DNA of 64,000 nt from Trypanosoma brucei (GCA_000002445.1 CP000069.1:288001-352000); one strand, 5' to 3'; positions 1 to 31,911 are shown, numbered from the stretch's first letter. The notes: generated by a model from the sequence alone, not told the origin. Made by a program: numbers and translations.

Positions 1-3000
1 TGTGTGAGTGGGTGTGATTTATTTGTTTGTTTATTTATTTGTTTACTTCTGATGAACTAAAACAACTGAATGACGGTGGAGAGGAGGAGGAGGAGGAGGA
101 GAGGAGGGGGGAAACACAACAGAAGAAATTAAATGCGTATGGGAACGCACAACAACTTGCATAAATTGTACATCAACTCTCAGTAATAATAACAATTGGA
201 GGAAAGAACAAAGAAAAAAGAAAAAAAAAGCGAAAAAAACTGAAACGAAAACACGAACTTCCGGCAGACGCATCAATGCAAATAATCACATGGGACCCAC
301 CAAATCACTCGTGTAAAAAGTTGGAGAAAACAACGACAAAACAACCAAGTGGAAGATAATACTGGGAAGAAAGAATAACAAACACAAAAACACACACAAG
401 CGAATATAAATAAATAAATAAAATCGGTTGTACACTCTCAGATCTTACTTTTCTTTCTTTTCTTTTCCCCCTCTTGAGTATTTGTCCTCCTCTTGATTCT
501 AAACAACTTTTATTTTATTTTATTTTATTGCGTTGCTCGATTTTGCTCCCCTACTTTCCGTTTCATCTTTTTTTTCTTTCCTTTTTTTTTTTGTAGGGGG
601 ATTACACCCCTTTCGTGTCGCTCAGGCACTCTTTTTTTTTTTTTCCATTAATCGTTATTACTACCAATACCACCAATTCTTTTTTACTCATTTATTCAAC
701 AAATTGTGGTGTCATTCTCATTCTCATTCTCATTCCTTTACTTTTACTTTATTTTTATTTTTCTCGCTTTCTCTTCTGTTCATCCCTTTTCACACACTTT
801 CATGTTCACTTTATTTATAATTGTCTTTCCATACTTAAAAGATAAAAACAAACAAACAATCAATCATCAACAACAAACTCAGTCTTACTCGTTATTTATT
901 TATTTATTTCATTCCGTTTTGCTTTGGAATCACATCCCCTCTGTACGGTCAAGTATTTTTTTTTCAAATATATATATATATATTTTAAAATATATTTCTT
1001 TTTTTCTTTGTTTCCTTTCCCCTTCTCTTACTAATTGACTGATTAATTTATTCATCATTTTACTTCATTGGCTTTGGTTTCCCTCCTTGTGCGTATTTAT
1101 TTGCGTTCAGTGCCATTAACAGGACCGCAGGCGTTTTTCTTTTCTTTTTCTTTTTTTTTTTTATTCCACCTCTTCTTTTCTTTCATTTGAGTTAAAAAAT
1201 CTCATACAAAGAAAGTTAAAGTATTATTATTATCATTATCATTTTAACGAAAGCAAATAAAACACAAACACACACACACACACAAAAAGACAGAAAAAAA
1301 ATCAACGAAGAAAGAAAAAAAAACAGCACCAACTAAAGATTTAGAAAAAAAAAAGAAGGTTAAATATATACATAAATATAAGTGATGAACATATAAAAAA
1401 AAGCGCATGAATAAGCGGGTCAAATTAAAGGGAAGGGAAGTAGAAAGTAACAAGAAGGAGAGAGAGAGAAAAAGGAAAAAAAAAAGGAAGTGCTACAAGA
1501 CTAAAGAAAATATTTTTTCTTTACAAAAAAAAAGATTTAAAAAAAGGTAAAAAGAACAACATCGTGAGAAGGAAGGTTTTCTTTTCCTTTTAACTTAAAA
1601 TAATAATAATAACAATAATAACAATTATTATTTAGTATTTTTTCCCCTCTAACATATATATATATATATATATTCTTTATTTTCTTTTTTTTCTTTATAC
1701 ATAGGTATTCTCATTCTTCTAATCTTTCCTCCCTTCACGTACACACACACACACACAACAAAACAAAACAAAAAGAACAATAAAATATCAGAAGTAATAA
1801 ACGGATGCCAACGCATCAAAGCAGTAAACAAGGAAAAAAAAATGAGAGAGAAGACGGAAAACACCGTGAATGAAATAAAACAATACACACATGGCAATTC
1901 AAAGAAATAATGATAGTAATATTAAATTTTTCTTTTTTTTCTTTAAAAAAAAAACGGCAATGGCAACAACAACAACAACAACAAAAGATCAAATGCATGA
2001 GTGAGCACACATGAAGCGGGAAACACACACACACACACCCCATAGGAACACACATATGCATAAAAATGAAAACAAAACAAAAGCAAAAACAAAACGAAAC
2101 AACAAAACAAAACAAAAAAAAGGAAAAGGAAAGGAAAAAAAAAGGGAAAAGGAAGAGGGGCGCGCCACCGCAGAGAGTGATGAGGCGCTCAGGAGAAATA
2201 TTAATAAATAAGAAAGAACCAAACACCAACCCCAAAAAAAACCCTAATTTTTATATATTTAAAGAAATATAAACCGGAACAAACAATTTAAAAGGAAGAG
2301 AAAAAGAAAAAGGAAAATTTGGACGAATGAGTGTGGAAGGACTTGCGCTGCTTTTGCATGCCTCTTCCAATACAAACACCCCAACGCACAAATACACACA
2401 CATATTAATATTAATATTAATATATATATATTCTTTCCTGAAGATGCCCCCCCCCAAACAACCCCAATTCTCCTCCCTTCCTCCTTTTTTTCCTTTTGAT
2501 CTTCCAATCAACAAAGGCACACAAAAACAGCAGATATAAACACAAAAATATAAAAGAAAACACAAACATATGTGCGAAAATATTGGACACATATAATGAT
2601 ATATTTCCTTCATTTTTCTTGTTGAAATATTCGTGTCTGTTTAGCCCCGTTTTTTAATTCATTCTCTTTTTAACACCATTCATTACTTTTATTACTATTA
2701 TCAGGTCGCCATCTATTTTCTTTTTTATTTTCTGCTTCTGTTTTTCCTCCTTCTGTGAATTATTGAAAAAGTTAGTGGATTAAAAAGAAAAAAATTAGAA
2801 ACTTTAATACCAACAAAAGCAGGCGTAATAATCACAAACACACAAACACACGCAGTTACATGTACATATATATATATGAAACGTAACAAATGGAAGGAAC
2901 AAAACAAATGAACACAAAACATCAGACATCGAAACCAAAACAAAACAATAAAAACAAGAAAACTATCTAAAAAAAAGAAAAGGAATAAAAGGAGTGATGT

Positions 3001-3830
3001 GTTCGGTGTCGCATAACGACGAATGGAGGGGGGAAATATACGGCCGGGATGAGAGAATAGCAATAAATGAAAAAAAAAAACAATTGAAAAGAGAAAAAAG
3101 AAAAAAACAGGCCGTAAGCACATTACTTGTCTTTGTTGGAGGAAAAAAAAGCAAAAAAAAAGAGATGGAAGTTGGGAAAGAGAAAAAAAATTCTCACCAT
3201 CGGAGTGGTGGAGCATGTTCGTTTTTTCTTTCCTGCTGATTTAACTTGATTTGTTTCCCCCTCCTTTGGTTTGTCCTGTTTCATCCTAAAATCTCATAAA
3301 CATATTTATGTATACACTTATATATATATATATATATACGCGTGCGCATGCGTGTGTTTGTGTTTTACTCTATTCATTCATTTTGCTTTTTGTTTGTTTT
3401 TGGTTTTGGTTTTTCACCATACATCATGATCACACCAGTTGTTTGTTTGTTTACTTTTTTATTATTTTTCATTCCTTTCTGTTATTTTGCTTGTTTGCTC
3501 CTCTTTTACTACTGCCGTAGCATCACTTAGCCTTCACTGTATTGCTTTCTACTGTACACTTCTCGTCTCTTCTACTCCATTCTTCCTCTCTCTCTCTCTC
3601 TCTCTTTTCCTTCATCTTTGCGTATCCCAAGCTTACAGAAGTAGGCCACGACAGTAATAATAATAATAATAATAGTAAACAAAACTTGAGGTTAAAAGGA
3701 GCAGCGTATCTCATTTCTTCGGTTCCTTTCCCTCTGGCGCCTCCACCTTCCTTTTATTATTCATTCCTCATATTTCGTAGAAATCGCATAGCACTTAAAC
3801 GAACAGACGCATGGTACTCAATCCAAGTCA
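1..3830. repeat. Low-complexity, microsatellite-rich region with no credible ORF. It includes (GGA)n 78-111, (CA)n 1268-1284, (TA)n 1654-1673, (CAA)n 1964-1985, (TA)n 3318-3338, (TC)n 3585-3606 and (TAA)n 3654-3675.
   Basis: I read the sequence directly. ORFs in this stretch translate to poly-F/L/K low-complexity peptides on both strands. This is typical trypanosomatid intergenic or UTR DNA. Confidence 0.8.
2237..3315 (-). repeat. Left copy of a roughly 1.1-kb inverted duplication. Its partner is at 26135-27232.
   Basis: The reverse complement of 26135-27232 aligns to 2237-3315 at roughly 90-95% identity, with homopolymer indels. One checked block is rc(26535-26596) against 2878-2940, which match with only 2-3 mismatches in 62 nt. 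The ORF pairs 2251..2613(-) / 26857..27054(+) and 2725..3216(-) / 26246..26734(+) encode the same peptides. Confidence 0.85.
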
Positions 3831-3831
3831 T

Positions 3832-4581
3832 TTAACAGAAGAGATACGACTCCTTTGGAACTGCAGGGCTCAATGGGCGTTCATATCCCGGACCCGCCTG
3901 TCGTGAGCGACGCGCTCCGTTCCGCTGAAAAGCCAAAGCGGCCTCCACATCAATGACAGAATCGCCACTACTGCTTTTAGAACAGTGTCCCTCATCTTCA
4001 CCAGCGCGGCACGATGCTTCCACACAATCCTCAAGGGGATTTTGTCCACTTGTTGGAGCTGAGAATCCCCACAGCGGTGGTTCACTAATGGAAAAGAACT
4101 CCATCATGGCTTCTTCATCGGGGTCAATGCGGTGGGGACGCTCGCGGAATGTAAGCAAAGACGATGGGATATGGGCAGGTGGTGAGGGCTTCCGTACCGT
4201 CATCTTTCCAACAGAAGACCGCCGCAATTCATATGAAGGCGAGGGGACAACACTTAAACTGCCTGCATGACGCTCACACATCTGGTCTGGAGGAACTCCT
4301 GGGCAATGCGGTAGCCGAATGGGCGATAGCGACGGGCAGCTGTTGCGGGCGGCATCATCATCCCTGGAAACATTGGCGTAACGACGAAGTGGATGCTCGC
4401 CACTTGTTGGCAAGCGCTCCAACCATCTTCTGCATCCGTGAGTTTCAACCGTCCTCACCGATGTGGGCGCCTCGGTGTTGCTGTGATGAGTGGCATTTTG
4501 CATGCGCGCTGCATCACCCTTTACGATATCCGGCCCGAAGTGGTCGTGGTGAGCTGCACACTTTGACTCGATACAGTTCAT
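3832..4581 (-). CDS. Hypothetical Ser/Pro/Arg-rich protein. The start is probably the internal Met at 4581. The longest ORF reaches 4677 but begins in a poly-T-derived Lys run.
   Basis: This is a GC-rich ORF island of about 58% GC sitting inside AT-rich simple sequence. It lies on the same strand as the downstream PTU. I recognise no domain. The overlapping plus-strand ORFs are what one expects in GC-rich DNA. Confidence 0.4.
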   Translation of the reverse strand: MNCIESKCAAHHDHFGPDIVKGDAARMQNATHHSNTEAPTSVRTVETHGCRRWLERLPTSGEHPLRRYANVSRDDDAARNSCPSLSPIRLPHCPGVPPDQMCERHAGSLSVVPSPSYELRRSSVGKMTVRKPSPPAHIPSSLLTFRERPHRIDPDEEAMMEFFSISEPPLWGFSAPTSGQNPLEDCVEASCRAGEDEGHCSKSSSGDSVIDVEAALAFQRNGARRSRQAGPGYERPLSPAVPKESYLFC

Positions 4582-5741
4582 AACTACTGCAATACTATTT
4601 TCTTTCTTTACACTGTGTTTTTTTTCCCCCTTTCGTGAAGCCTGCTTCTTTTTTTTTTTTTTGGGGAGCAACAGCACGTTACTGGATGTGTGAATGTACC
4701 CAGGTGTTCTCTGTTTTATTTGTTTTTAATATCAGCGAGGAGATGCAGGTGTTAGCGACCTTTCAGAATTTTTTTTACAAAAAAAAAAGCTTCCCCCGTG
4801 GCTGCTGAATGACAAGCAAAAGAAAGAAAAAAAGAAAAGAAAGCAGTTGGGACAAGCGACACTCGTCTTCTTTTCACCAGAAAACGCAAACTTCGACTAA
4901 ACGTAATGAGAATGAGTAGTCCAAGTCTAAATAAGCTGCTTTTTCCCCCTTTTTGTTGGTGTTGATTCGGTTCTCTTCCACCAGTGGAATGGACGTAACG
5001 CCGAAAATGGTCGGATTCACTGATAAAGCACCAGCCGTGTGTTCTCACGGAAACTTTTAACAAAAAAAAAATGGTGTTTCAGATTTATTAATTCACTTTA
5101 CCTCGATTATTTTCCTTTCCTTCCAACTTTTTTTTGTTTTTCTTCCTTTCCTTTCCCTCCCAGTGTTCGTTTTTCTCCCAGCTCACCTCATTCCTCCCTC
5201 ACTATTTTTGACAATCAATTCTTTCTTTTCTTCTTTCCTCGCTGTCAAAAATAATTAAGCTGCGAAAAGAAGGAAAAGAAAAAAAAGAAGAATAGTTCCC
5301 CTCAACTCCTGTATCATCCTCAATTACGTCAGAGGAGTGTGTGCGCAACAAAGTGGGAAACAAAGAGGGAAAGGAGAAAAGTGTCATGTAACGTCTGAAT
5401 GCGCTGCACCCCTAATATATATATATATATACGTTTATGTATAATATTTTCAGTTCCCTCTGTGTGTGTGTGTGTGTGCGTCTTGTTCCCCCATCCTCTT
5501 CGTCTTGTCGGTGTCATAACCATTTACAACTTCAAACGTACTTTGCTTCCCCCTTCCCCCGCCCTTCACAAAGACAGGGACAAAAAGAAACACCCTATAA
5601 GGAGCAAACGTAACCAAAATAACACACACCTAAAACAAATAATGAAAGAAAATAGTGATGAGAATGAGATACGGGGCAACTTAAGGTTTAGGTAAGCTGA
5701 GGAGAGGGGGAAAAAAGAAAAAAGAGGAAAATACAAAGGGT

Positions 5742-8642
5742 TCAGTTCAAAAGCACTGCCATCATTTTGGCTGCTTCCACTTCCGCCTTTTGCAAGACTT
5801 GTGTAGTATTGGCAGCGGGGAACCCCGACTGGGCTGCCGACGGCTTTCCACCCCCTTTCCCTACGGCTGTTTTGGCCCAACTGACTGCGTCCAGCTTCTT
5901 AGCAACGAAGGCGGGGGGAAGAGAAACAAGTGCAAGTGCCTTACTTTCATCACTCCCCACAAGAAAAAGCCCCACATCTCCCGAGACTGCCTTGGAGAAT
6001 CCGTCTGCATACGCTTGCAATGCCTCGCGGTCGGCGCCGGTGTCAGTGAGATGCCGCACCAACAGCGGCCCCGCAGACGCATCATACGCCTCCGCCGCGG
6101 CACGGCCAGCTTCCGTTGCCTTCTCTTTCATCTGCGCCGCCTGTGCCTTGAGAGCTCCGAGGACATTTTTGATGCTCCCGTCAATTTCTTCCCGCAGTGT
6201 GTTCTTGACGACGAGGGGAATCGCGCTGTCACCCACTTTCTTGTTCAGCACTGACAGACTTTTCGCCACGGCATCGGAGGCGGGGCGAGACATGATTTCC
6301 CGGTACTCCTGCTGAAGTGCTTTACCACCCTCTTGTGCCTTACGGGCGGCGTCACGTGTTGCGACGACCATCCGCCGAATACCTTTCATAAGGGATTCCT
6401 CAGAAAGAATAACAGCCAACTGCGCATCTTGCGTGTTGGAGAGGTGCGTCCCACCGCAGAACTCGGTGGAGTACGCCCTCCACTCTTCGCTCTCTGGCTC
6501 TGCGATAAGTTTTTCAACTGGGACCCCGACAGATATAACGCTGACGGGGTCCGGGTACTTCTCCCCAAACATGTGTCTCAGGCCTGCGATCCGGCTGGCA
6601 GCATCCAATGCGATTTCTTTGCGATATACCTCTAATCCTTGTTGGATTATTTGATTGATAAGCTTCTCAACCTTGATGAGATCCTCCAGGCTAACCTTGT
6701 TATTGTAGCTGAAATCAAACCGCAGCATTTCAGGTGTGACGAGCGACCCCTTTTGGTTCACCTCCATGAAGTTATCCTTGGCCTCCTCCTCCAGAACACG
6801 GCGCAAACACCAGTTAAGAATGTGCGTGGAGGTGTGGTTCGCGGCGATAGGTAGGCGCCGCTCGTAGTCCACTTGCAACTCCACTGACGCCGTGACGGGA
6901 ATGGGTGCAGCTGCCCCATCCTCCACTGACCTCATACCACCCACGTGCACGATGTATCCCCCTACATTGTACACCTTCCTCACATCAAATATAGCGTCCG
7001 GTGCGGCGACAATGCAGCCCGTGTCATATATTTGGCCACCAGCCTCGGCGTAAAAGTTTGTAACATCAAGTATAATACCGATATCCTCGGGGCCCATTTC
7101 AGAATCAGGAAGAAGCACGTCCACGAAGCTGCCACTTTTCTTGTCGAAAATGGCTTTCACCTCCGCCACATGCTTTTTCCACGTGTATTTGGCCGAATCA
7201 TCCGTTGGGGAGACACCGCCAGCCTTAAGCTCTTCTAACTGGTGCACGTCAATGAAGGTCTTTGCCGCCGCCACGCGACCAGAGCTCAATTGGCTAGCCT
7301 TCATCGTGGCGTGAAAACCTTCAAGGTCGACACTCATGTTGGCCTTCTCCGCAAGAAGGCTGGTTAGGTCAACTGGAAAACCGTAGCGGTCGTGCAGTAT
7401 AAAGGCATTTTCACCGCTGATGACATTGTTAACTGCCTCTGCCACAGCCTTGTTAAAGTGCTTTAGTCCAGTTTCCCATGTCCTAGCGAAGGATGTTTCT
7501 TCATCTGCCAGCACGCCTTTGATACGCTGCACCGTTCGCGGCTCTTGTATGTGTTTGAAGAACGGCCCAAGGGACGAGACGACCGAATCCACGAGTTGAT
7601 GGAAGAACCCCACTTTCGCGCCAAGAAACTGAACTCCATAACGCACGGCACGCCGGATGATGCGACGCAACACAAAGCCCCTTCCGACTGAGTCCGGCAT
7701 GGCACCATCTGCAAGAGCCACTGTGAGGCAGCGGATATGGTCTGCCACGGCCCGGTAGGCCACTGTGGCGTCGCACGTATCGTGGCGTACCTCCGCATAG
7801 GACTTCTCAAACCCAGTTACTTTCTGGATGGTGTCAAACAGAGGTGTCCACGCGTCTGTGTCATAATTCGAGTCTGCGCCTTGCAGTATAGATGTAAGCC
7901 TCTCTAGCCCCATCCCAGTATCCACGTGCATCTTAGGAAGTGGAACAATAACACCACCCGCGCGACGCTCGAACTGCATGAAAACAAGGTTCCAAACTTC
8001 GAGAACCATGGGATCGTCTTTGTTCACCAAGTCGGCTGCATCTCGGCCTCCAATTCGGTCAAAATGGATCTCCGAGCACGGCCCGCATGGACCCACGTCC
8101 CCCATTTCCCAGAAGTTGTCCTTCGCATTTCCAGCGATGACGCGGCTGGCTGGAAGCAACTGCAGCCACAACTGTTTAGACTCTTCGTCAGCCTCTATGC
8201 CATTCGCGGGATCACCTTCGAAGTACGTCGCGTAAAGGCGATCTTTGGGAAGTTTGTACACCTCAGTGAGAAGTTCCCACGACCACAGTATTGCCTCCCG
8301 CTTAAAGTAATCACCAAAGGACCACGAGCCCAACATCTCAAAAAAGGTGTGGTGGTACGTGTCGCGGCCCACGTCGTCCAAGTCGTTGTGCTTTCCACCT
8401 GCACGGATACACAGTTGCGAGTTGACAGCACGGGTGAGGCGACCAAAGTCTGTGTTGGGGTCTGCGGTACCAAGAAAAAGGTTCTTAAACTGGTTCATTC
8501 CCGCGTTGGTGAACAGTAACGTGGGGTCGTTGTGGGGGACCACCGCGCTGGATGGGACAAAAGTGTGACCCCGCTGCTCAAAAAAACTGACAAACTCCTG
8601 CCGCACCCGATTAACAGGCCATTCAGTCACCGCTTTTGTCAT
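5742..8642 (-). CDS. Alanyl-tRNA synthetase, class II. The start is likely Met at 8642, with 8765 as the longest ORF.
   Basis: The AlaRS motifs are present: HNDPTLLFTNAGMNQFK, WEMGDVGPCGPCSEIHFD, the editing-domain HTSTH and a C-terminal GGGKPSAAQSG. The length of about 967 aa fits. Confidence 0.95.
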   Translation of the reverse strand: MTKAVTEWPVNRVRQEFVSFFEQRGHTFVPSSAVVPHNDPTLLFTNAGMNQFKNLFLGTADPNTDFGRLTRAVNSQLCIRAGGKHNDLDDVGRDTYHHTFFEMLGSWSFGDYFKREAILWSWELLTEVYKLPKDRLYATYFEGDPANGIEADEESKQLWLQLLPASRVIAGNAKDNFWEMGDVGPCGPCSEIHFDRIGGRDAADLVNKDDPMVLEVWNLVFMQFERRAGGVIVPLPKMHVDTGMGLERLTSILQGADSNYDTDAWTPLFDTIQKVTGFEKSYAEVRHDTCDATVAYRAVADHIRCLTVALADGAMPDSVGRGFVLRRIIRRAVRYGVQFLGAKVGFFHQLVDSVVSSLGPFFKHIQEPRTVQRIKGVLADEETSFARTWETGLKHFNKAVAEAVNNVISGENAFILHDRYGFPVDLTSLLAEKANMSVDLEGFHATMKASQLSSGRVAAAKTFIDVHQLEELKAGGVSPTDDSAKYTWKKHVAEVKAIFDKKSGSFVDVLLPDSEMGPEDIGIILDVTNFYAEAGGQIYDTGCIVAAPDAIFDVRKVYNVGGYIVHVGGMRSVEDGAAAPIPVTASVELQVDYERRLPIAANHTSTHILNWCLRRVLEEEAKDNFMEVNQKGSLVTPEMLRFDFSYNNKVSLEDLIKVEKLINQIIQQGLEVYRKEIALDAASRIAGLRHMFGEKYPDPVSVISVGVPVEKLIAEPESEEWRAYSTEFCGGTHLSNTQDAQLAVILSEESLMKGIRRMVVATRDAARKAQEGGKALQQEYREIMSRPASDAVAKSLSVLNKKVGDSAIPLVVKNTLREEIDGSIKNVLGALKAQAAQMKEKATEAGRAAAEAYDASAGPLLVRHLTDTGADREALQAYADGFSKAVSGDVGLFLVGSDESKALALVSLPPAFVAKKLDAVSWAKTAVGKGGGKPSAAQSGFPAANTTQVLQKAEVEAAKMMAVLLN

Positions 8643-9016
8643 CCGTGTTAGTAATGTCAATTCTCGGTGCAACGTTGCGGTGCTTGGAATACCAACTTGA
8701 AATAAAAAAGAAAGAAGGAAAGAAGGCAGAACGAACGAAGTAAATAGGAAGCGGAAATAAAGCAAGAACGACCAGTTAGAGGAGGAGCAAAGGCCACTAA
8801 ACGCTTGCCAATGAACCTACATACTTCACTGCTTCCTAGCGCTGTAGAGGGCAATCAAACTGGGGAAGATGGTTGGGGAGGCAACTGCTGGCGAAAAGGA
8901 AGAATCAAATGGCGCTGAAGGCTAGACAAAGACGCCTCTCCTCAACCCCCAAAATTTTGACTCCCTTCTGCTTTTTCCAACTGAAGGAGCCCACCCCGGT
9001 CCAATTCTCCCCTAAG

Positions 9017-9057
<41 letters not shown>
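9017..9057. repeat. Compound microsatellite (CA)n(TA)n in the short spacer between the AlaRS and DPCK genes.
   Basis: Sequence at this position reads cacacacacacacacatatatatatatatatatata. Confidence 0.9.
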
Positions 9058-9087
9058 CATGCATACATGTATTGCTGTGCACTCATC

Positions 9088-9813: not shown

Positions 9814-10194
9814 GGCGACCCCCTCGATAGCGCTAGCATGTTTGAAAGGGAAAGCGCAAAGCACCCAAGCATGTGTGCAGCATTTGGTTCCGTGAGTGGT
9901 GGAAGGGATGGAGTAAGAAAACGGAAGAAAACAACAAAGAGGTGAAACAGGTTAGTCATAGCTCAATGCCAAATTAAGTAACATAATGAGGGAGGATTTG
10001 CGGCGGTAAACACACCCTCAGCACCGCACGCCAGTGCGCACAAAGTTAGAATTCGCGCACAACAAACGCATGGAGCGTTGATAGACTTTTTTTTAAAAAA
10101 AAAGAAAAGAGGCTAAAAGTACGAATGAAACTAACGGATGCAGGAAAGGACAGCGACTCATCGGGAACGTCGAGGGGTGTCGCGAGACAACTCT

Positions 10195-15442: not shown

Positions 15443-18400
15443 TCACTCCTGCGCAGTGTCCGGCGCTTCCTCGTCTCTAGTGACAAAACCTCCTTCTTCA
15501 GTGACCGGTGCGTTGCCCTCACTCTCACCTGTAGCCTCAGGTCCTTGACTTTCACCATATTCAACACGTTTTTGACCCCCTCCAGCCACTGCGTCGTGTT
15601 CGCCTTCTCCACGCGTAGCAGTCGTCTCGGCCGATAAGAATTGATGGCTGGCGGTATAGCGGTTGAAGACTGCTAAGTTTCCAAGAGAGATGGAAATTTG
15701 CCTCATCTCTGCATCCGTCAAGTCGAAGTTTTCAAATTCATCGATCACCATTTCCGGAATGTCCCCACTACTATCACTGCAAGAGTCAGCTTCCACGTGT
15801 ATATTACCACCTTCCATCACCCTCGACGACCCCGCTTGCTCACCGGTTTCCGAAAATTCACTCTCAGAACTGTCACCTACCACCGTGTTTCCGCTTTTGA
15901 AACTCGCCAGAGGATATCCTATAGCATATGCGATGGCGCATGACAGCTCCTCCGGAAACAGGTCTGCCCGCACCCTATTTATTGAGAGGGCGAGGTAATA
16001 GTCCATGCACTCACGAACATCTCGAAGGCAGGTTGCCACATCAACATTCGTCAAATACATCTTCTTACAATTGTCGAAAAATAGCGCCGCCATGTTTTCA
16101 CTTTCCTTTTCCCCGTTTGGCACATAAGGAAAAACAGGCGTCATCCTACTTTCATGATCTGTAAAAAGTGATGGTGGAATTTCTTTTACCGACTTGACGG
16201 TAAGCTCACGGAGACATAAGGCGAGCTCTACGGGGGTCACCGCTGTGGCATCAAATATCGTGAGGTTGGTCTCAAGGAACATACGTTCGTTAAAAAATAT
16301 AAATGCCCGGTCTCCATATTTATTCTGCCTTTTCCTTGCCAACACAGATGTTGCCGCTAGTTGACAATGCTTGTCATCCCAACAAATAATCTCGGGTTGG
16401 CCTCCACTCCTTTTACTCCGGTACTCCAAAGAAGCGATCCGTGGATAAAGCGACCAAAGAACGACCAAGCGGATCAATCCTAGATTGTCAGAATGTCGAG
16501 AAGCAAATTTCACTGGATTTTTCGTCCTCCGTAGCAACGCAGAGTTCTCAACAAAACGTAGCAGCTGGTTTTTCGTGCGACTTATGGACCGCAGCACCGC
16601 TTGATCAGCGAAATTATGTATTGCATATTCTGGGCTGCACCCAGAACGTTTCCACCCATCAAAGAGTTTAAGGACGGACATGTGGTCCGAAAGAAAACCG
16701 TTGTCAATGGCGTCAACCGCTTTCTGGAGGTCACCCCTTTGATTGGGTGTATTTAAAAAGGGTGATTTCCCCGAAAGGAAGGCCGCGATTGTCGCAACCG
16801 GATCCAAAACACCAAAACAGGCAGCAGCGAGCAGCATTTTGCCCAATAACGGATGAACAGGCAACCTTGACAGCGCTCTACCAAGACTCGTCAACTGTTC
16901 AGCTTCAGGCGTGAACGCACCAATATCCTTCAAGAAATTAGTGGCATGTTTTGTTGAATATTCTGAGGGCACGTCAAGTGCACGGCTGAGAACCTCTACG
17001 CACGTTTCCTCTGGTCTTAAAGCCTTTGCAAGCAGGCAAACTTCCTCCAAGGGGGTTCTCATTATTTCCGGTGGGAGAAACTCAGGTAAAGCCTCATAGG
17101 ATGACCGCGGAAGGAGGTGAATACACACACCTGGTCGGCAACGCCCGGCTCTACCACGACGTTGCAAGCCGTTGGCTCGGCTAATGAATTCTGCTGTTAA
17201 GGCCGACGTGTTTGCTGCGGGATCGTAAGATGAAACTTTCGTGAGGCAACTGTCAACAACATAGACGATGTCGTCAATTGTTATACTCGTCTCGGCTATG
17301 TTAGTTGAAAGCACTACCTTCCGGTAGCCTTTGGGGGCACGGTAAAACACCCGCCGTTGTTCTTCCGCGGTCAGACTAGAATGCAGCTGTAGGACGGACA
17401 ACTCCCTGGACACATTTGACATTCGAATCATGTTTGCCACACGAGATATGGCCTGCCACCCCGGAAGGAAAACAAGTATACTCTCTGACAGATGTTGGGA
17501 ACTTCTGTGAATATGTCCTATAAGCTTAACCACTATGTCGTACGGTACATGGGCCTGTGAGTCAAAGCCCAGTTTCGTGTCAACGGCTTCTTTTATCTTT
17601 TCGTACACCGAGCGCTTTGCCATATCTTCAGTATTGTTACCCGTACTCTGCATTGAAAGTGCATTATTTGGCAATTTCATAGAAGCAAGTGTTGAAAGTG
17701 GCATTTGGAGCCACTGTAAGACATCTTCCATGTAACATTCTCTCACGGGATGCAGTGTCCCTGGTATCTTGATAACTGGTATTGTTTCACCAACGGTAAC
17801 GCCTGAAAAGTACGATATTATTTTCTCAACTTGTATTGTGGCGGACATGACGACTACCTTTATGTGGTTTGCATAGGCCCCTGGATTCCGCCGCTGATCA
17901 ATAATTCGGTCGCGGAGAAGTAACAAGCAAAAATCTGTTTCGACGTCCCTTTCGTGCACCTCATCCACAATGAGACAAGAGACATCGGAAAGCTGTGGAT
18001 CCGTGCGTAGACGACGCAGGAGGATTCCAGTGGTCATGTAAACAATTCTCGTTTCACTGCTTGTTATGTTGTCAAATCGGATGATATATCCACAACTGTT
18101 TCCACACGCTTCACCACGCTCCTCAGACACCCGCTGTGCAACGGAAAGGGCGCTGACCCTTCGCGGTTGGGTACACACTATCTGTAGATCTTTGTTGAAT
18201 ATCCCTGCATCGTACAACATTTGAGGTATTTGAGTAGTTTTACCGCATCCTGTGTCACCACTAATGACAACGATATCGCTTATCTTTACAGCATTGAGAA
18301 TAGCGCCCTGTTGTCGGAAAGCAGGCAATGTTACCCGGAACCTTTGCAACTCCGCATACCGGTGGCGGGGCACTTTGCTAGTCGGGACGTTCCCCAACCC

Positions 18401-19198
18401 GGGTTGCACGACGGTTAACTGTCGACCCCCCTGGCGCTGCTCTCCCCTCAGCTTCAAGTCGCGGAACATCCGCTTAAGGAGTGGCCCCACCAATAGATTG
18501 ATGTTCGAAACTTTAGGTCTGATGTATTCATCAGGAAGCCTCTGAGCCCCTTGGTAACCCTCTGTCCTCACTCGAACCCCGTTAGCAATCAAAAATTGCC
18601 TTCCCTGTTCTTCGCTCGTTTTGTTGAATTTTCTTAGCGTCAGGAAACGCTCGTTCTGCGACCCTGAAGATTTATGGAATAAACCAAAAGTGTGGGCGAA
18701 CTTATGCACCTGCTGGCGACCTGCAGCAGACAGTGTTGGGGGGAACGAGAGCTCATGAGCGGTGGGATCGTCCACAAAGGCCTTTACCATACTTTGAAGG
18801 TGCTTTTTCAGACGCTTAAAATTCTCAGGGAATCCAATACCTTTTTGATTGTCGACAATGTCCAACACGCCGCGCTTTGTGTCGGAGTTATCGGACGCAG
18901 GCATATTCTCGCACTTTTGTCGAGAATCATTTCCCCTAGGTAAGGAATTGGTGAACTCCTGCTGAACTGGAGCACGTGGCAACAAAACGGGCGGCCACCA
19001 AACACCACCGGGCATCGGAAGTGGATGACCGTACATCGGGGCAGGTGGGAAGAAGCCCGGTGAGCACGCAGCCCTAACGGAGGCATGGGGCAACATTTGT
19101 TGCAGTTGTGAGGCCTGAGGGCTGCCACCCATCGGGAAGCGACGTATGTTCGCATCAACTGTTTGATGCTTCCCGCCTTCGCATCGCTTCTGGTTCAT
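15443..19198 (-). CDS. ATP-dependent DEAH-box RNA helicase (DHX family) with an N-terminal Pro-rich region and an R3H-like domain.
   Basis: It carries motif I GDTGCGKTTQIPQ, motif II DEVHERD, motif VI QRRGRAGR and an HA2/OB-like C-terminal region. An R3H-like segment near the N-terminus reads QQVHKFAHTFGLFHKSSG. Confidence 0.9.
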   Translation of the reverse strand: MNQKRCEGGKHQTVDANIRRFPMGGSPQASQLQQMLPHASVRAACSPGFFPPAPMYGHPLPMPGGVWWPPVLLPRAPVQQEFTNSLPRGNDSRQKCENMPASDNSDTKRGVLDIVDNQKGIGFPENFKRLKKHLQSMVKAFVDDPTAHELSFPPTLSAAGRQQVHKFAHTFGLFHKSSGSQNERFLTLRKFNKTSEEQGRQFLIANGVRVRTEGYQGAQRLPDEYIRPKVSNINLLVGPLLKRMFRDLKLRGEQRQGGRQLTVVQPGLGNVPTSKVPRHRYAELQRFRVTLPAFRQQGAILNAVKISDIVVISGDTGCGKTTQIPQMLYDAGIFNKDLQIVCTQPRRVSALSVAQRVSEERGEACGNSCGYIIRFDNITSSETRIVYMTTGILLRRLRTDPQLSDVSCLIVDEVHERDVETDFCLLLLRDRIIDQRRNPGAYANHIKVVVMSATIQVEKIISYFSGVTVGETIPVIKIPGTLHPVRECYMEDVLQWLQMPLSTLASMKLPNNALSMQSTGNNTEDMAKRSVYEKIKEAVDTKLGFDSQAHVPYDIVVKLIGHIHRSSQHLSESILVFLPGWQAISRVANMIRMSNVSRELSVLQLHSSLTAEEQRRVFYRAPKGYRKVVLSTNIAETSITIDDIVYVVDSCLTKVSSYDPAANTSALTAEFISRANGLQRRGRAGRCRPGVCIHLLPRSSYEALPEFLPPEIMRTPLEEVCLLAKALRPEETCVEVLSRALDVPSEYSTKHATNFLKDIGAFTPEAEQLTSLGRALSRLPVHPLLGKMLLAAACFGVLDPVATIAAFLSGKSPFLNTPNQRGDLQKAVDAIDNGFLSDHMSVLKLFDGWKRSGCSPEYAIHNFADQAVLRSISRTKNQLLRFVENSALLRRTKNPVKFASRHSDNLGLIRLVVLWSLYPRIASLEYRSKRSGGQPEIICWDDKHCQLAATSVLARKRQNKYGDRAFIFFNERMFLETNLTIFDATAVTPVELALCLRELTVKSVKEIPPSLFTDHESRMTPVFPYVPNGEKESENMAALFFDNCKKMYLTNVDVATCLRDVRECMDYYLALSINRVRADLFPEELSCAIAYAIGYPLASFKSGNTVVGDSSESEFSETGEQAGSSRVMEGGNIHVEADSCSDSSGDIPEMVIDEFENFDLTDAEMRQISISLGNLAVFNRYTASHQFLSAETTATRGEGEHDAVAGGGQKRVEYGESQGPEATGESEGNAPVTEEGGFVTRDEEAPDTAQE

Positions 19199-19413
19199 GA
19201 CAGGACCAGTATCTATAACAAGAACAAAGCAAGCAACGAGCCTCTGCGCGCCTTCCTTTCCTTTAACAAGGGGAAAGGATCAGAAAGGCAGACAAAAATT
19301 CAGCAGAATTCGAATGAAAACAGAGGGCAGATGTTGGCGGTGTCACAAGCAAACGCGGTAAAGAACTTATCACAACATCTACACAATTAGCGCTCGATAC
19401 ACACGAGAAACAC

Positions 19414-20538
19414 TCACAAGTCGTCTAGAACATCGTTCTTTCCCTTAGTGGTTTGACGCTGGTTGTACTCCTCGACGGCATGTTGTAGCTCTTCCAAAAA
19501 CAGTGTGTCATTTAAAAAATCTTCCAGCGTTCCGTTTCGTCGAGCGTCAGACGCAAGAACCTCATGTAGCACAACCTCTTCCTCGACACCGTCACCAGAA
19601 CTATAGGAAGTCACAGTTATCTCGAGGGCAGCGATGTTTCCGTACATCCAACGGCTCATGCCCACGTCTATAGCAATCACGCTGCCTCCACAAAAAGTTT
19701 CCACTCTCCCTGAGCGTTGGGGAGTGTGACCCACAACCACCCGTTTTACCCCCAGTGAAGCGAGCGCTTTTTTTGTATCGGCACAACGACCATTTGAAGC
19801 ATCAAGGAACATCTTTCGGGACCACAAAGGACCGGTTGAACCCAAAAGGATATGACCAAAATTTTTTGTACGTATCGCCTGCTTGGCTTCCCGGTTTAGC
19901 CTCTCAATTCCATCGGAAACAACATGTTCGTCAATGCCAGCATGAACAAATAAGGTATCGGCGACAGCATACGCTACTGTGAAATTTTCTAAAATAAATC
20001 CTCCGAACGTGCCGTCGAGTTCAAACGCGCGCTTGCGCAACGCCCTTGTCAAAAACCCACCCATAGATTTTGAATGGACATAATGAAAGTGACCCTGAAG
20101 ATTTAGAAGCTCGTGATTTCCCATAAGCAGAACTACTTTGTCATCAGTGTAGTTCGTGCGCACCTCATTAAAAAGCGAAACAGCCATCTCAAGTACCTCC
20201 AAATCTTCCTCACCTCTATCAATCAAATCTCCAGTTTGTATTAGGGTTGTCCGCAATCGTGTGCCGTATTCCCTAAAGAAGTTACCTTCCTTAGTCCCCC
20301 ATCTGGGCTTCCACACCACTTGTTTACTACTGTTAGAACGTAGGCTAATGACGCCGGACATCTCAAGGATTTGCCGAAAACGCTCGGCATCTCCATGCAC
20401 ATCTCCGACGGCCACAATACGGTGTATTTCAATGGGAATGACATTCCTGCTAAGGGGGTTTGCGTCTACATTAGCACAACATCGTATGCCCAAATGTGCA
20501 ACCAGAACTAGCGAAATTAACAAGTATTTCCCCACCAT
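19414..20538 (-). CDS. PPP-family / calcineurin-like metallophosphoesterase, possibly a Ser/Thr phosphatase, with an N-terminal signal peptide.
   Basis: It has the metallophosphatase signatures GDVHGD, GDLIDRG, GNHE and VVGHTPQ. The N-terminus MVGKYLLISLVLVAHLGIRCCA is hydrophobic and resembles a signal peptide. It is the first gene of the minus-strand PTU, next to the divergent SSR. Confidence 0.75.
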   Translation of the reverse strand: MVGKYLLISLVLVAHLGIRCCANVDANPLSRNVIPIEIHRIVAVGDVHGDAERFRQILEMSGVISLRSNSSKQVVWKPRWGTKEGNFFREYGTRLRTTLIQTGDLIDRGEEDLEVLEMAVSLFNEVRTNYTDDKVVLLMGNHELLNLQGHFHYVHSKSMGGFLTRALRKRAFELDGTFGGFILENFTVAYAVADTLFVHAGIDEHVVSDGIERLNREAKQAIRTKNFGHILLGSTGPLWSRKMFLDASNGRCADTKKALASLGVKRVVVGHTPQRSGRVETFCGGSVIAIDVGMSRWMYGNIAALEITVTSYSSGDGVEEEVVLHEVLASDARRNGTLEDFLNDTLFLEELQHAVEEYNQRQTTKGKNDVLDDL

Positions 20539-23500
20539 TAAAGACGGCTAAAGTATTAAACTGTCTGGTACACAACACGATATTTTGTGTCAATACGAAA
20601 CACCTTAGATATTAGAAGTCGAGAAGGACATCATACGAGAACTGAAGGCAGGAGAAGGTTGAAAACACAAAAACAGCCCACAATCAGACAAATACTGAGT
20701 GAACAAGGCACCATTAGCACAGTTCGTAATGTCCTTAACGTAATAGGGATGACTCCTTTGCTGACACAAACACATGGTCGAAGACAAATCATTGCACAAG
20801 ATGCGCACCCCTGGCACTGGAAAGGCGCTAGTGCAGTTACCTGGACTGGGGCTCTCTCTCTCCCCCCCAAACGAAACCAAGTTGTTGAGCAGCATCAGGT
20901 GTTGAGACTCACACACTCATTATTGTTCGGATGCTGGCACATGTCCATAATCACAAATAATAAAAAAGTTATCTGTCACCACCTTCAGAGGCCATACCTG
21001 CCGACATTTGTTTCCTCATTTTTAAAAAGTTCCCTCGACATAAAAGGAGGATTTAAGCACGGAGGTGTTGTTACAATTGGAGCCGGGGCTAGTTGCACCC
21101 GGCTCGAAAGTGATGTGACCGACAAACCTCCGACTACGGCCCTCTTATGCAAACAAAGCACCACGGGCATGGTACAAGTAGTCAAGTGAAGCTCTAACAA
21201 TAACAATCATAATAGAGTATTACTGTATCTATTTGGTTCTTCGCGAGACTCTCGGCATCACTTGCGAGCACAGAAAAACAAGCGGAAACCCATAGCATTC
21301 TCAGCATTTAACATGCTTCCAAGGGCGGATCTTTTGATGTGCATTCATTTAAATAAGAAAAGATCCCAGATCGTGCGTTCATGACACATGGTGACGTTGG
21401 CAATAGCCAGCTAAGCCGGAGGACATGGTTCATTTTTGTATTTCGACCCTTTCAACTTAAAAAAGAATTAGCACTCTATGACCGCGGCTAATCACGGCGA
21501 AAACACAAATTCATTTCATTTGATTCATTTCTTAGCGCGCTCTTCACCCATGCGCCCCCACCTCTGCGCCACTCCCATTTCGCACTATTCTTAGTGGTGT
21601 AAAGGTTGTGGGGGTGGGTCGTTCCCCAGCAACACATCCTGGGCTTACAAACAGGGTTATGGGCTAAAAATGCACTCCAGCGACCGTGTGAACCGAATCA
21701 ATTGCCCACAGCTCGCCGGAAGTTTGCAGCTTCCGACGGAACTTGCAAACGGAGAAAGCCGTCCGGACGACAACCAGTAAATATGTCACTAGGGGCGGAC
21801 AAACAAATAAGTAAAGGTTTCTACCACTTTCATTCACTTTCCACCCCTTTCCCCACCGCGTTGCTCAATCTGTCATTATATCAATATCCGGCATCACCTG
21901 CACAGCGACGAGATGTGCTCAACACCGTTACACTTGACGGATCGCAGTGACACGGGTGATTGACTCTCGAGCTCGCAGTTGGTGGCATTAGCGGCTGTCC
22001 CGCGTTATTGTTCACTAAACGGGGTCACTGATCTCCCTGACGCTCCTATCAATACGCATCAGAGGACAGCGTACATCGGCCTTCTTTTTCTTTGGAAACG
22101 GAAAAGGTAAACGAGGAAAGAACGAAGATGATAAAATCTGCGGGTTCGCAAGTGGATTTATGGAGCAGAACCAATTTGCTGACCTTCAATATTGTTCACC
22201 TCCTACAGCAAAGCGGAAACGGCATTACATCTCCTGCCTTAGCTATTCAGTGAGAGTTTGTTCCACTACTGGTGAGAGAATGGATCATTCCATTGTTCTC
22301 CCTTGTTGTGTATGATGTAGTGCGCTTATTTGTTTTTCGAGACACCCATTCAATTGATACCTTTTTAGGCGAAATAATCGTTTCAATCTTTAGCAACCTT
22401 ACTTTGATGCTTTCTCTTCCTCCCTCTTGCTATTCTTTTCGTTGCAGTCAAGTGATCACGCGGAAAATGAATCGATTGATGCAGGGCTTTTGTTTCAGTT
22501 GCAGCCGGCTTTGCCTAAGCATGGTGGCATGAACAATGGAGCGACAACACCTCTTTCACGTCGTGTGCACTTCGACCGTACATTCTCTGAACTTTCGTTG
22601 CATTTCCCCTTCTTTATCAGTGAACAATTCTCACCATACGCTTGACTGGAACATTTTGGAGGTGATAGTGTGATGTTACGCAATACACAGCCGAATCCAA
22701 ACACTCTATTAGCGTTGGGCTCGTGTTAACGGCTTCCGGTGAACGATCAGTACTATCTGAATATCACCCTCGGGAAGCTGATCGAGAGTGTTGCCATGTG
22801 CCACAGCAGTATAATATCCGTATTTCAGGCAGGTTCTTCCCCCTTTCGTTTGTGCAGGTAACGCAAAGAAGTGTTTCAACCCTCTTTCTAGAAGGTGTGT
22901 CAGAACATTTCTTTGCGTACTTGTGGTGTCGGGAGAACACGACCCGCCGGAGTTCCTCTGTATGTTTTGGAAGTGATGCCCTCCCCAGAGTGTTTTGTGC
23001 TTCCTATTCTCTTCTATACCACCACAACCGTGAAGTTGTCGATGTGCCACGCCAGGCGTAACCGCGGCATAATGTTGCTCTCGCTATTCTTTCCCTCTGT
23101 TTTTTCACTTTACCATTTATTCTGCAGAATGAAAAGCAGCGAATCGTTCCGTTGGTACTGCCTTTTTTGTTGCTAATTTTGGTGCGCATTTCTATATACG
23201 TCGCGACCCTCCCTCTCCACTACTGTGGGGCCCTTTTTTTTTGTGACAGCAATGAAAGAGACAATGGCTCGGCGAAAATTGTCGTTCTCCTTCGGCTTTT
23301 TGGTCGCTCCATTACAGTGCGGAAAACCGTTGAAAATTCGCTTTCAACTGCCATACCTTCCGCACGGCAACTGCATGTTGCTTTGCCTGTTCCAAGGAAA
23401 TAATCCATCGTTAGTTCCTCATTCCTCAGTGGTATTGAGGTTCTGGTCCTTGGTGAATCGTCCAGCATTTCCATTTCACCTATCTAAACATGCCAGTCAA

Positions 23501-26500
23501 ATTTCCTGAGTCTTATCACCTTTCTTATTCTTTGCGCTTTTCATCACCTATGGCATCTGCTTTCAGCACCCAGATGCTGCACAATCGGAGGAGGACATCC
23601 TCGCTAACAAGAGGTATTCAACTTTACGTGGTTTCTCCAATCTGTCAAAATTATCGTAACGCCCCCCCTTTTCATTGCGCTTTTACACCTGGCGTTCCTA
23701 TAGGAAAAGCTGCCTCTGCATCTGCTCAAAGAAGATGCTTTTTTACTTAGAGGGATAGGGAGGGGGCTAACACTCTCCTGAATGCAACGCCTGCTCCAGT
23801 TATGAGCGTGGCTCCTTTTTGTATGGCCTCCTCATTCGCTGCCTTTGGCAAAGCAGACATCGTGTGTGCAGCTTGCGCACGCATGCGACCACGAATATTG
23901 CGGTGTGGAGGTGACGGCAAATACTAACGGAAAATCGCGGCACAGCAAATTTCCCCATTGCGTAACACGTCAGCGATGTGACCCGATCTCAGTGATCCCT
24001 CTCTCCAACCCTGCTCTATAGGTGAGACGGCCCCAGCCGCAGTAGTCTTCGTGGTTCTTTTGTTGCCCCCTTTGTGAACTTCACTACTTCGAATGACTAA
24101 AGCACTAGGCTAATTAGCTTCGGTCACTTCCCCCTACATTTTCGTAATCCGTGTGGAGGTTATGGGCGTCGGCACGCCTGATCCCAAGGCACACAAATCT
24201 CTTTTCCTCAGTTAATACGTCCAAATAGTGTTGCGTTAAGCACTGGGTGACACACCCTACTCGTTACTCTTGCATATCGTCGACATTTTCCAGATCCATG
24301 TCATTGGGCGTGGTCGTGGGATCCTCTGAAAAGAGCCTACCGCGAAACTCCGAAATGCTACCTCGTCTTCTGTTGAGGGATTACACCCCAACCGTGTATA
24401 AGATTGGCATCTGAGCCAACCCTTGCGATGTTCTGCAGGTTACGGATACAGTTTCTAACCACGTGTCGCCAATCTCCACTTGGGGTCTTGAAGTGAACAA
24501 CAACTGTCGCATCCACTTCGTCGGCTGGAAATATATTTTCCAGCGATCTAGCGCCAAAATCATACGTGCATGCTCTACCGGGCTCAATGTTATCAGATAG
24601 CTCAGAAACATCACTACCGCCTCCCCTCCTCCTTGCCCGCCGGCTTATTACACCAAGCGGCTGTGCCATAGCACTCGTTGATGGGCACTTGAAGCCCTGG
24701 CCGCTGTGGCTAAGGTGAGGCGTCCCGTTTATTCTTCAGTTTCTCAGTGTCTTTCTTTCCATTAGCTTGCAGGGGCCGCCTGTTACGGTCACTGGCCGCG
24801 GTCGCGCCACCTATGTCGCAGCCTTGTTTGTCTCCAAGGTCGGTGTTAAAATGCCCTTCCCTCCGCCGTTTCGCCATGGCGTTGGGCCCAGCGCACCAGT
24901 TATTATTTCCAGGGAGGTCCTGTCCCTCTTTCCGCTCGAGATCCTGCAATTTATCTCCATGCTTATGATCCGCCCCCGGTGCCGCCCCTTTAGCAAATTC
25001 ACTTACAGCTGACTTTCGTTTAGCTCGCGATGAGAGGGCATGACCGTGCGGTTGTTTGCTGGCGGCGATCCGCTATTTGGGGGGTGGGGGCGGATCGGCC
25101 TCTCTGTGGGATTCTTGGAGAGTAGCTCTGTGGGTACGCTCGCCTCCACTCCGCTCGTTGTTTCTCCTTTTCGGTAGGCGTTGACTGGTCGCCGGTACCC
25201 GCGTGCGCGGCGCGTCTCCGCTCCGGACTCACCCTGGTCAAGCGAATTGACACCGTTTCGAGTGCTGTTGGGGGTTAGGTGCCCAGAGGGCCGTTACCGC
25301 CCTTTGGCGGGTGTGGCGGGGTCGCTTCAGCTTCCTTACGGGCTCGGAGCAGTGCCGTTGCCGAGCGGTACGCTTGTACGCATTCTGCGGGGTGGTAAAA
25401 CCCTTTGTTTTCATTGCATATTGGCCCATGATCACGAGGGTTGATGGTTGTAGCAAAGGGACGGTGCAATTTAAGCGCGCGCGCAGGGGGACCATATATC
25501 AAAACATATCTGTGAGTTTAAACGACTTCACAAGTGCTGCTCCTAGTGATTTTTTAAGTACCTGGGGAAGTATTTGGGTCCTCGAGCCGGTAAGTGTGTT
25601 GGGTTGCTCCCCCTACTGTGTGGTTCTTGATCCCCTAGTGGTGCGGATAAATGGACGCCTGACTAGAGAGACCGGCCGTAGCGTTGTCGTTCTTTTGACT
25701 TTCTTTAGATCTGACAAGATGCCACTTGTTCAGTTGGGTGCGCTGACTGTTTGACTTCTGCCTCACGGCCCCAACAATCCCTGTGACAGTTAGAAAAAAA
25801 AACTGAGGAAATCTTATGCGAGACATGATGTCGGGACGATCATTCATTACCGATTACCGACTCAGTAGCATTGCCGTGTCGGTATATCGGACAACTTTAC
25901 CGAATCAACCCTCTGTACGAAAACTAAAGACCCAATAAATCACCTATCTTGCAAATCCGTGACGTTCGTCGTTTAGATATTTAATACTTCTCGTTACTAA
26001 ACACGACACTCTTAGGACTGCAGAAGCATAACATTTTACATAAAAGCCAACAGCCCCCCCCAAAAAAAAAAATTAAATTGAAGTCGTTGCCCTAGCAAAA
26101 GGCGAAAACAATGCCAAACTCTAAGAAACTTGCAGATATAAATATATTTATGAGATTTTAGGATGAAACGGGACAAACCAAAGGAGGGGGAAACAAATCA
26201 AGTTAAATCAGAAGGAAAAAAAAACGAACAAGCTCCACCACTCCGATGGTGAGAATTTATTTCTCTTTCCCAACTTCCATCTCTTTTTTCTTTGCTTTTT
26301 TTTCTTTTTTTTTCCTCCAACAAAGACAAGTAATGTGCTTACGGCCTGTTTTTTTCATTTTTCTCTTTTCAATTGTTTTTTTTTCATTTATTGCTATTCT
26401 CTCATCCCGGCCGTATATTTCCCCCCTCCATTCGTCGTTATGCGACACCGAACGCATCACCCCTTTTATTCCTTTTCTTTTTTTTTTTAGAGAGTTTTCT

Positions 26501-27272
26501 TGTTTTTATTATTTTGTTTTGGTTTCGATGTCTGATGTTTTGTGTTCATTTGTTTTGTTCTTCCCATTTGTTGCGTTTCATATATATATATATGTACATG
26601 TAACTGCGTGTGTTTGTGTGTTTGTGATTATTACGCCTGCTTTTGTTGATATTAAAGTTTCTAATTTTTTTCTTTTTAATCCACTAACTTTTTCAATAAT
26701 TCACAGAAGGAAGAAAAACAGAAGCAGAAAATAAAAAGAAAAAAGAAAAGAAAAGAGATGGCGACCTGATAATAGTAATAAAAGTAATGAATGGTGTTAA
26801 AAAGAGAATGAATTAAAAAACGGGGCTAAACAGACACGAATATTTCAGCAAGAAAAATGAAGGAAATATATCATTATATGTGTCCAATATTTTCGCACAT
26901 ATGTTTGTGCTTTCTTTTATATTTTTGTGTTTATATCTGCTGTTTTTGTGTGCCTTTGTTGATTGGAAGATCAAAAGGAAAAAAAAGGAGGAAGGGAGGA
27001 GAATTGGGGTTGTTTGGGGGGGGGCATCTTCAGGAAAGAATATATATATATTAATATTAATATTAATATGTGTGTGTATTTGTGCGTTGGGGTGTTTGTA
27101 TTGGAAGAGGCATGCAAAAGCAGCGCAAGTCCTTCCACACTCATTCGTCCAAATTTTCCTTTTTCTTTTTCTTTTCCTTTTAAATTGTTTGTTCCGGTTT
27201 ATATTTCTTTAAATATATAAAAGTTAGGGGTTTCGTTGTTGTTCTACGCGTTGCCATTTAACGTTGCTACGT
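20539..27272. promoter_or_regulatory. Divergent strand-switch region. It is the presumed bidirectional Pol II transcription start zone for the minus PTU (genes at 3832-20538) and the plus PTU (cyclase array).
   Basis: Gene strand flips from minus (ORFs up to 20538) to plus (from 28005). No credible CDS lies between. Only GC-rich both-strand overlapping ORFs occur here. Polypyrimidine tracts face outward on each strand. Confidence 0.6.
26135..27232 (+). repeat. Right copy of the roughly 1.1-kb inverted duplication. It ends about 40 bp before the first unit of the cyclase array.
   Basis: See the 2237-3315 feature. Boundaries were estimated by eye from where the reverse-complement alignment decays at each end. 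The 3315 end lies immediately beside the (TA)n tract at 3318-3338. Confidence 0.85.
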
Positions 27273-31829: not shown

Positions 31830-31911
31830 CCTTGTCATTGATGATATTCGTAGAGTAGCAGTAACATACCGGATTTCTGTTGGGTCGCCATTATTACGAT
31901 GAAGCCGTTGC

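Follow-up and report, generated by a model that had tools for sequence, protein, structure and literature searches.

A 64 kb stretch of chromosome 6 of Trypanosoma brucei brucei TREU927 (hereafter the window), which spans from Tb927.6.690 to the GRESAG4 adenylate-cyclase array Tb927.6.760-800, was analysed for the origin and role of a 1.1-kb inverted repeat, whose left arm lies in AT-rich intergenic DNA and whose right arm lies between a divergent strand switch and the cyclase array. The pair is probably a young, noncoding, two-copy inverted segmental duplication, i.e. a low-copy intergenic repeat with no demonstrated function. An origin of the strand switch by inversion between the arms is not supported by the assemblies compared.

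Self-comparison of the window by BLAST returned a single inverted match (2238-3309 vs 27233-26138; 95.18% over 1100 columns, 1709 bits, E=0), and a repeat search of the window recovered the identical pair as colinear blocks I1-I7, I9 and I10. In a global alignment of the left arm (1074 nt) with the reverse complement of the right arm (1101 nt), 1046 positions matched and 24 were substituted (16 transitions, 8 transversions), with 35 gap columns in 9 indel events, mostly within homopolymer or low-complexity tracts. Identity is 97.8% for substitutions only and 95.2% with gaps; a first-pass annotation of this DNA had put it at 90-95% with homopolymer indels, which described the indels well and set the identity too low. 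Its basic observation, an inverted duplication of 1.1 kb that brackets 23 kb and abuts the cyclase array, holds, with colinear unique sequence in the arms and 22.8 kb between them. The longest perfect blocks (193, 92 and 78 bp) run through unique sequence beyond shared microsatellite, which excludes the alternative that the arms share microsatellite content only.

The boundaries of the arms are sharp. Searches of the flanks with word-7 blastn and tblastx found no homology past either arm end, on both sides, and a larger duplication extending past the arms was rejected on these empty results. As described earlier, the right copy ends just before the first GRESAG4 unit, the gap being 38 bp, and a (TA)n run stands at one end of the repeat; this run is found only at the left arm, next to its inner end, and lies outside the duplicated segment. 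Both arms have the same polarity relative to local transcription and are T-rich when read that way: the right copy is inverted on the chromosome and therefore reads along with the transcription around it, just as the left arm does.

Compound (CA)n(TA)n microsatellites at 9014-9073 and 3299-3358, outside the duplication, gave rise to spurious inverted-repeat pairs and to sub-threshold Rfam microRNA matches. Positions 473-685 of the element weakly resemble the minus strand of the window at 1059-1284 (nhmmer E=3e-11, bias 53), about 1 kb downstream of the left arm and in the same orientation, with a counterpart in T. b. equiperdum (L004 13198-13420). Common TA/TG microsatellite content probably accounts for this similarity, the alternative being a partial tandem copy that has degenerated.

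The arms were examined for coding and structural content. Each holds an open reading frame (ORF) of 162 or 163 aa, rich in F and L and with frame switches between the copies, and coding potential was rejected, as the ORF frames differ between the copies and no Pfam domain was found in the arms. The concatenated translations of seven ORFs had zero homologues among 5.8 billion proteins, a search that acts as a proxy for called ORFs at other copies and so carries no information on the copy number of the element. No Rfam family was found in the arms at E<=1, the only matches being sub-threshold, microsatellite-driven and outside or at the arm edge, and ARAGORN found no tRNA in them; a structured noncoding RNA gene was rejected on this basis. 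A retroposon of the ingi/RIME/DIRE/SIDER type was rejected on the features tested, namely a reverse transcriptase/endonuclease remnant, a terminal A-tail and a target-site duplication, none of which was seen (the latter two sought at the junctions). Homopolymer runs of at least 5 bases make up ~15% of the element.

For comparison within the T. brucei group, the corresponding loci of T. b. gambiense DAL972 (L002, L003) and of the chromosome-level assembly of T. b. equiperdum GCA_003543875.1 (L001, L004) were used, along with two small T. equiperdum OVI contigs (L005, L009), both ending inside the repeat. The age of the duplication was judged over the internal ~790 bp present in three sequences. 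Here, the right arm of TREU927 differs by 13 substitutions from the left arm of the same strain and by 10 from the left arm of T. b. equiperdum, and the two left arms differ from each other by 17; private sites number 10 in the TREU927 left arm, 7 in the T. b. equiperdum left arm and 3 in the TREU927 right arm. Divergence between the arms thus does not exceed allelic divergence of the left arm, which argues for a young duplication and against the earlier statement that the divergence implies an old one. Within the 5' 250 bp, a few fixed differences set every right arm apart from every left arm; since the right-specific bases recur in each of the three strains, both copies are older than those haplotypes. 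On the sequences compared, the copies predate the sampled haplotypes, but only just, and the duplication seems to be of within-species age. Occasional gene conversion between the arms may have occurred, without being needed to account for the counts.

Base composition points to the left copy as the source. Both arms have a guanine-plus-cytosine (GC) content of 0.322. The flanks of the left arm have 0.309 (outer) and 0.363 (inner), and those of the right arm 0.499-0.533 on the inner side, within strand-switch DNA, and 0.415 on the outer side, within the leader of the array. Because the composition of the arms fits the left flanks and contrasts with the right inner flank, the left copy is probably native and the right copy a derived insertion. 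The intergenic region around the left arm is microsatellite-rich with 27-36% GC, and its length varies: ~7.4 kb in T. b. equiperdum (L004 10751-18149), at least 3.8 kb in TREU927 (1-3831, running off the window), 3.0 kb plus an assembly gap in DAL972 (L003 10751-13755) and 2.3 kb in T. vivax (L008 14334-16607).

T. b. equiperdum has the complete left arm (L004 11270-12374), and in DAL972 an assembly gap interrupts it. The insertion boundaries of the right arm are identical in DAL972, T. b. equiperdum and the window. Its internal ~813 bp are absent in DAL972 and T. b. equiperdum, as found by BLAST of L001 and L002 and by multiple alignment, so that ~290 bp remain (the first ~246 bp and the last ~42-50 bp) and ~74% is deleted. 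In TREU927, the missing segment is bordered by two copies of the 8-bp microhomology AATTGTTT, and the deletion junction reads CAATTGTTTGTTCCGG in both other strains; the same AATTGTTT junction in the two indicates that they share an identical deletion. The 813-bp indel provides a simple polymerase chain reaction (PCR) marker to tell the TREU927-type from the DAL972/T. b. equiperdum-type haplotype at the locus. OVI contig L009 (1-250) is TREU927-right-like for ~135 bp and then carries TREU927-left-specific indels and bases to the contig end. Either gene conversion between the arms left a tract here or the short-read assembly collapsed within the repeat; it was treated as a collapse.

These strain differences bear on two other accounts of the full-length right arm. 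It is unlikely that an older duplication was homogenised by gene conversion, with the full right arm of TREU927 arising as a left-templated gap repair of the short allele. For such a history speak the internal part of the TREU927 right arm, a mosaic of two left-arm haplotype states with 3 private substitutions, the concentration of fixed right-vs-left differences in the 5' end kept by all right arms, and the OVI right-arm contig that turns from right-like to TREU927-left-like after ~135 bp. However, the private counts of 10, 7 and 3 fit a simple star tree (chi-square p about 0.16), the OVI mosaic sits at a short-read contig end inside the repeat, where assembly collapse is expected, and fill-in is less parsimonious than one deletion at an 8-bp microhomology. 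Extremely improbable is a partial assembly artefact, in which the true right arm of TREU927 would be short and the 813 bp filled with reads from a second left-arm haplotype. Although the full-length right arm occurs in TREU927 alone and its internal part resembles a left-arm haplotype, it differs from both left alleles (10 and 13 substitutions, 3 of them private) and is continuous with right-specific ends; even if the artefact were true, an inverted repeat of 246+50 bp is confirmed at the same two sites in two other assemblies.

The first-pass annotation had proposed that the strand switch is the product of an inversion between the arms. It is very improbable that the repeat mediates a 23-kb inversion, or is the staggered-break by-product of one, with the strand switch as the result. 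In Drosophila, staggered breaks leave inverted duplications flanking inversions, and the present pair is alike in that two inverted copies of a short unique sequence lie exactly at the ends of a multi-gene segment; yet the staggered-break model predicts a segment inverted relative to the ancestor, and the present segment lies the same way round as in T. vivax and in the other T. brucei-group assemblies examined. As a substrate the arms of TREU927 are plausible: they are inverted, 1.1 kb long, 97.8% identical and share a 193-bp perfect block, and in T. brucei the efficiency of recombination shows a linear increase with homology length between 50 and 200 bp, with a plateau above that (PMC1904282). 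By this length dependence, they are a possible substrate for homologous recombination, as had been suggested. Rearrangements detected by PCR have been reported at some trypanosomatid intergenic repeats, those of T. brucei included (PMC4028189), and T. b. brucei is known to differ from T. b. gambiense by segmental inversions, if only two, both on chromosome 10 (Jackson et al., PMC2854126). After an inversion, moreover, each gene would still point along a transcription unit, so the product should be viable.

Against an inversion stands the orientation of the block itself. The DAL972 loci L002 and L003 overlap on chromosome 6, as do the T. b. equiperdum loci L001 and L004 on a single chromosome record; both pairs are colinear with the window across both arms, so that the 23-kb block has the same orientation as in TREU927, and no inverted configuration was found in any of the three. 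Beyond the left edge of the window, DAL972 and T. b. equiperdum continue with genes on the same strand (a 352-aa protein, RNase PH, and proteins of 682 and 1500 aa), which corrects the earlier placement of the left copy 3' of the last gene of the minus-strand unit. In T. vivax (L008), one strand carries the helicase, a 557-aa protein, eL14, dephospho-CoA kinase, alanyl-tRNA synthetase (AlaRS) and a 237-aa orthologue of the 249-aa gene, followed on the same strand by the orthologue of the 352-aa gene (tblastn 16608-17549), RNase PH, and proteins of 622 and 1515 aa. The order across the left-arm site is that of T. brucei, and the present orientation is therefore ancestral to the salivarian trypanosomes. 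T. vivax shares the orientation at the left junction, contradicting an inversion origin, and the arms are far younger than that split. Synteny in related species had been named beforehand as the comparison able to overturn the inversion idea, and the orthologous orientation proved unchanged.

The geometry is also unfavourable. A crossover between the arms would invert 22.8 kb and shift the divergent switch by 23 kb to the left arm, neither creating nor removing it, so the conversion into a head-to-tail junction that had been envisaged would not result. The predicted inverted order would be RNase PH < 352-aa < arm < flipped strand-switch DNA > phosphatase ... > 249-aa > arm > cyclases. In the deletion haplotype, where ~246+50 bp of right arm remain, the recombination substrate appears much reduced, and this holds for two of the strains. 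A search of the literature found no paper joining T. brucei, inverted repeat, strand switch and inversion.

Decidedly unlikely is a functional cis element, that is, a sense-oriented module for transcription start, chromatin boundary, RNA processing or the boundary of the cyclase array, whose similarity is kept by selection. Both arms do have the same orientation relative to local transcription, the right arm stands, 38 bp from the array, at the head of the transcription unit of the cyclases, the intergenic region around the left arm is of unusual length (7.4 kb in T. b. equiperdum vs 2.3 kb in T. vivax) and could be an internal transcription boundary, and the sense strand has GT-rich and polypyrimidine tracts. 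But DAL972 and T. b. equiperdum, whose cyclase array is intact, lack ~813 of the 1101 bp of the right arm, the arms gain substitutions and indels at the rate of neutral spacer alleles, no RNA family or stable-structure signal was found in them, and a pyrimidine (T) bias of the sense strand is generic in trypanosome intergenic DNA. The boundary module of cyclase arrays, raised earlier, fares no better: no cyclase lies within about 7 kb of the left copy (in the window and, further downstream, in T. b. equiperdum), no copy stands at the right edge of the array, and tblastn searches for cyclase genes or relics came back empty for the surroundings of the left arm, for the strand-switch DNA and for the DNA that follows the array on its right. 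A left arm without cyclase, a right array edge without copy and the loss of ~74% of the right copy in two strains leave this reading unsupported.

The young inverted segmental duplication may be pictured as follows. A 1.07-kb piece of AT-rich, pyrimidine-skewed spacer downstream of the 249-aa gene would have been the template for a single copy, inserted at a break on the margin of the divergent strand switch, 38 bp from the present start of the GRESAG4 array. The copying would have proceeded by ectopic, template-switch or synthesis-dependent repair without flanking homology, shortly before or around the coalescence of the sampled T. brucei haplotypes. Afterwards, the arms would have drifted, presumably neutrally, by ~2% substitutions and by homopolymer indels, and the right arm would be decaying, the DAL972/T. 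b. equiperdum haplotype group having lost ~813 bp by microhomology-mediated deletion.

Several points weigh against this account. A full-length right arm is present in TREU927 only among the sampled assemblies, and since the OVI contigs end within the repeat, the status of their right arm is ambiguous. The polarity of the deletion (loss vs later fill-in by gene conversion) is judged by parsimony from no more than two haplotype groups. As TREU927 was the guide for ordering the DAL972 assembly (PMC2854126), the colinearity of DAL972 is not independent evidence, and T. b. equiperdum serves as the independent witness. Two copies were counted at this locus, and a third may exist elsewhere in the T. 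brucei genome. Finally, both copies are sense-oriented and the right one lies 38 bp from the array, which could hint at selection or a linked event over chance.

Table 1 Positions of the repeat and of neighbouring features in the window (nt, counted from its first letter)
Feature	Position	Strand	Remarks
Left arm	2238..3311	-	1074 nt; sense on minus strand; in long AT-rich intergenic region downstream of 249-aa gene; BLAST and alignments
Inter-arm spacer	3312..26132	-	22,821 bp; seven minus-strand genes and strand-switch DNA; ORF list and Pfam
(TA)n microsatellite	3316..3338	.	abuts inner end of left arm only; outside duplicated segment
249-aa hypothetical protein	3832-4581	-	numbered Tb927.6.690 here
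AlaRS, dephospho-CoA kinase, eL14, 594-aa protein, DEAH/R3H helicase		-	further minus-strand genes; ORFs and Pfam
Metallophosphatase	19414-20538	-	ORF and Pfam
Divergent strand-switch DNA	20539-26132		5.6 kb; ORF-poor
Right arm	26133..27233	+	1101 nt; low-GC island between strand-switch DNA and cyclase array
AATTGTTT microhomology, 5' copy	26371..26378	+	deletion junction
Right-arm internal segment	26379..27191	+	~813 bp; absent in DAL972 and GCA_003543875.1
AATTGTTT microhomology, 3' copy	27184..27191	+	deletion junction
Unique spacer, right arm to first array unit	27234..27271	+	38 bp
GRESAG4 adenylate-cyclase array	27272..50834	+	five units, period ~4754 bp; Tb927.6.760-800; self-BLAST 98-99%, Pfam cyclase domains
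GRESAG4 ORFs	28005-31829, 32764-36588, 37518-41342, 42272-46096, 47031-50864	+	
109-aa ORF	55530-55859	-	right of array
PUF-repeat protein	62722-63855	-	right of array

Features of the locus are collected in Table 1. Proteins of the window are identical to the T. b. brucei TREU927 entries AAZ11633-AAZ11639. No credible ORFs or Pfam domains were found in the 5.6-kb strand-switch DNA, and a pseudogene or retroelement there was rejected, there being no Pfam domain and no tblastx match against the upstream regions of T. theileri and T. grayi. In these two species, 8-10 kb of gene-poor DNA without a cyclase lead up to the phosphatase as the first gene, and a tblastx search of the 8-10 kb upstream of it gave no orthologues of the genes that lie to the right of the array.

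The GRESAG4 array, given as a five-copy array under Tb927.6.760 in Table 2 of Jackson et al. (PMC2854126), is the sole plus-strand coding block of the window, with minus-strand genes on either side, including a 109-aa ORF and a PUF-repeat protein on its right. It forms a small island on the opposite strand, bounded by a divergent switch on the left and a convergent switch on the right, and as an account of the strand switch such a plus-strand cyclase island among minus-strand genes is simpler than an inversion. In being an opposite-strand gene island it resembles the VSG/ESAG islands of T. brucei core chromosomes; the published description of islands covers the latter, and the array of the window falls outside it (PMC2854126). 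In the fifth cyclase, array homology ends at 50834, 30 bp short of the stop codon (50864), and the C-terminus reads …PFYDPCYREMCSF (1277 aa), compared with …PFYDMHLQEY (1274 aa) in copies 1-4.

Some minor differences were recorded among the minus-strand genes. The eL14 gene (10195-10764) encodes K72 in TREU927 vs E72 in DAL972 and T. b. equiperdum, and a second eL14 gene sits on another chromosome, with members of its cluster on records of 5.26, 4.53 and 3.65 Mb. T. theileri and T. grayi have an additional gene of 348-357 aa between the helicase and the 594-aa gene (L006 15561-16634; L007 13703-14749; the region corresponds to 11469-13256 and 13257-15442 of the window), a paralogue of the N-terminal half of the 594-aa protein with 29-31% identity; at that site, T. 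brucei and T. vivax have a gap of 2.2-2.4 kb without a separate copy.

The pair is of an already catalogued kind, a strain-variable low-copy repeat. Ubeda et al. (2014) counted 773 intergenic direct or inverted repeats in T. brucei by a blastn screen for 0.2-2.5 kb and at least 85% identity, on the same chromosome, usually 1-100 kb apart and many in two-member families (PMC4028189). The present pair is noncoding and intergenic, 1074/1101 nt long, 95.2% identical, on the same chromosome, inverted and separated by 22,821 bp, and so resembles their Repeat Alignment Groups in size, identity, two-member family and intergenic placement. It is not named in that paper or its supplements, which do not list T. 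brucei repeats (PMC4028189). Leishmania inverted repeats seed linear extrachromosomal amplicons, no such amplification being known in T. brucei according to these authors, and Leishmania repeats are mostly derived from SIDER retroposons (PMC4028189), from which the element of the window differs in having no retroposon feature. Likewise, ingi and RIME are dispersed repeats behind indels and rearrangements between T. brucei subspecies (PMC2854126); they differ from the present element, which lacks the retroposon features named above and was seen in two copies only.

In strains with a full right arm, such as TREU927, it is very doubtful that the arms recombine at low frequency, or that both mark transcription starts as a portable start module. 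If low-frequency recombination were true, the locus would have two interconvertible states, with the GRESAG4 array either at a divergent start or 23 kb downstream behind the AlaRS-helicase block, and recombination would act as a switch that sets how near to the promoter a surface-receptor gene array lies; an inversion found at low frequency would be a rare structural switch acting on polycistronic transcription in a trypanosome. As a duplication of the kind proposed here, the pair matters little in itself, being one more among hundreds of counted low-copy intergenic repeats of T. brucei. It would offer a dated and polarised example of copy-paste of AT-rich spacer into GC-richer strand-switch DNA, followed by deletion at an 8-bp microhomology, and it removes a tempting wrong story: the strand switch beside the cyclase array does not appear to have been made by inversion between these repeats.

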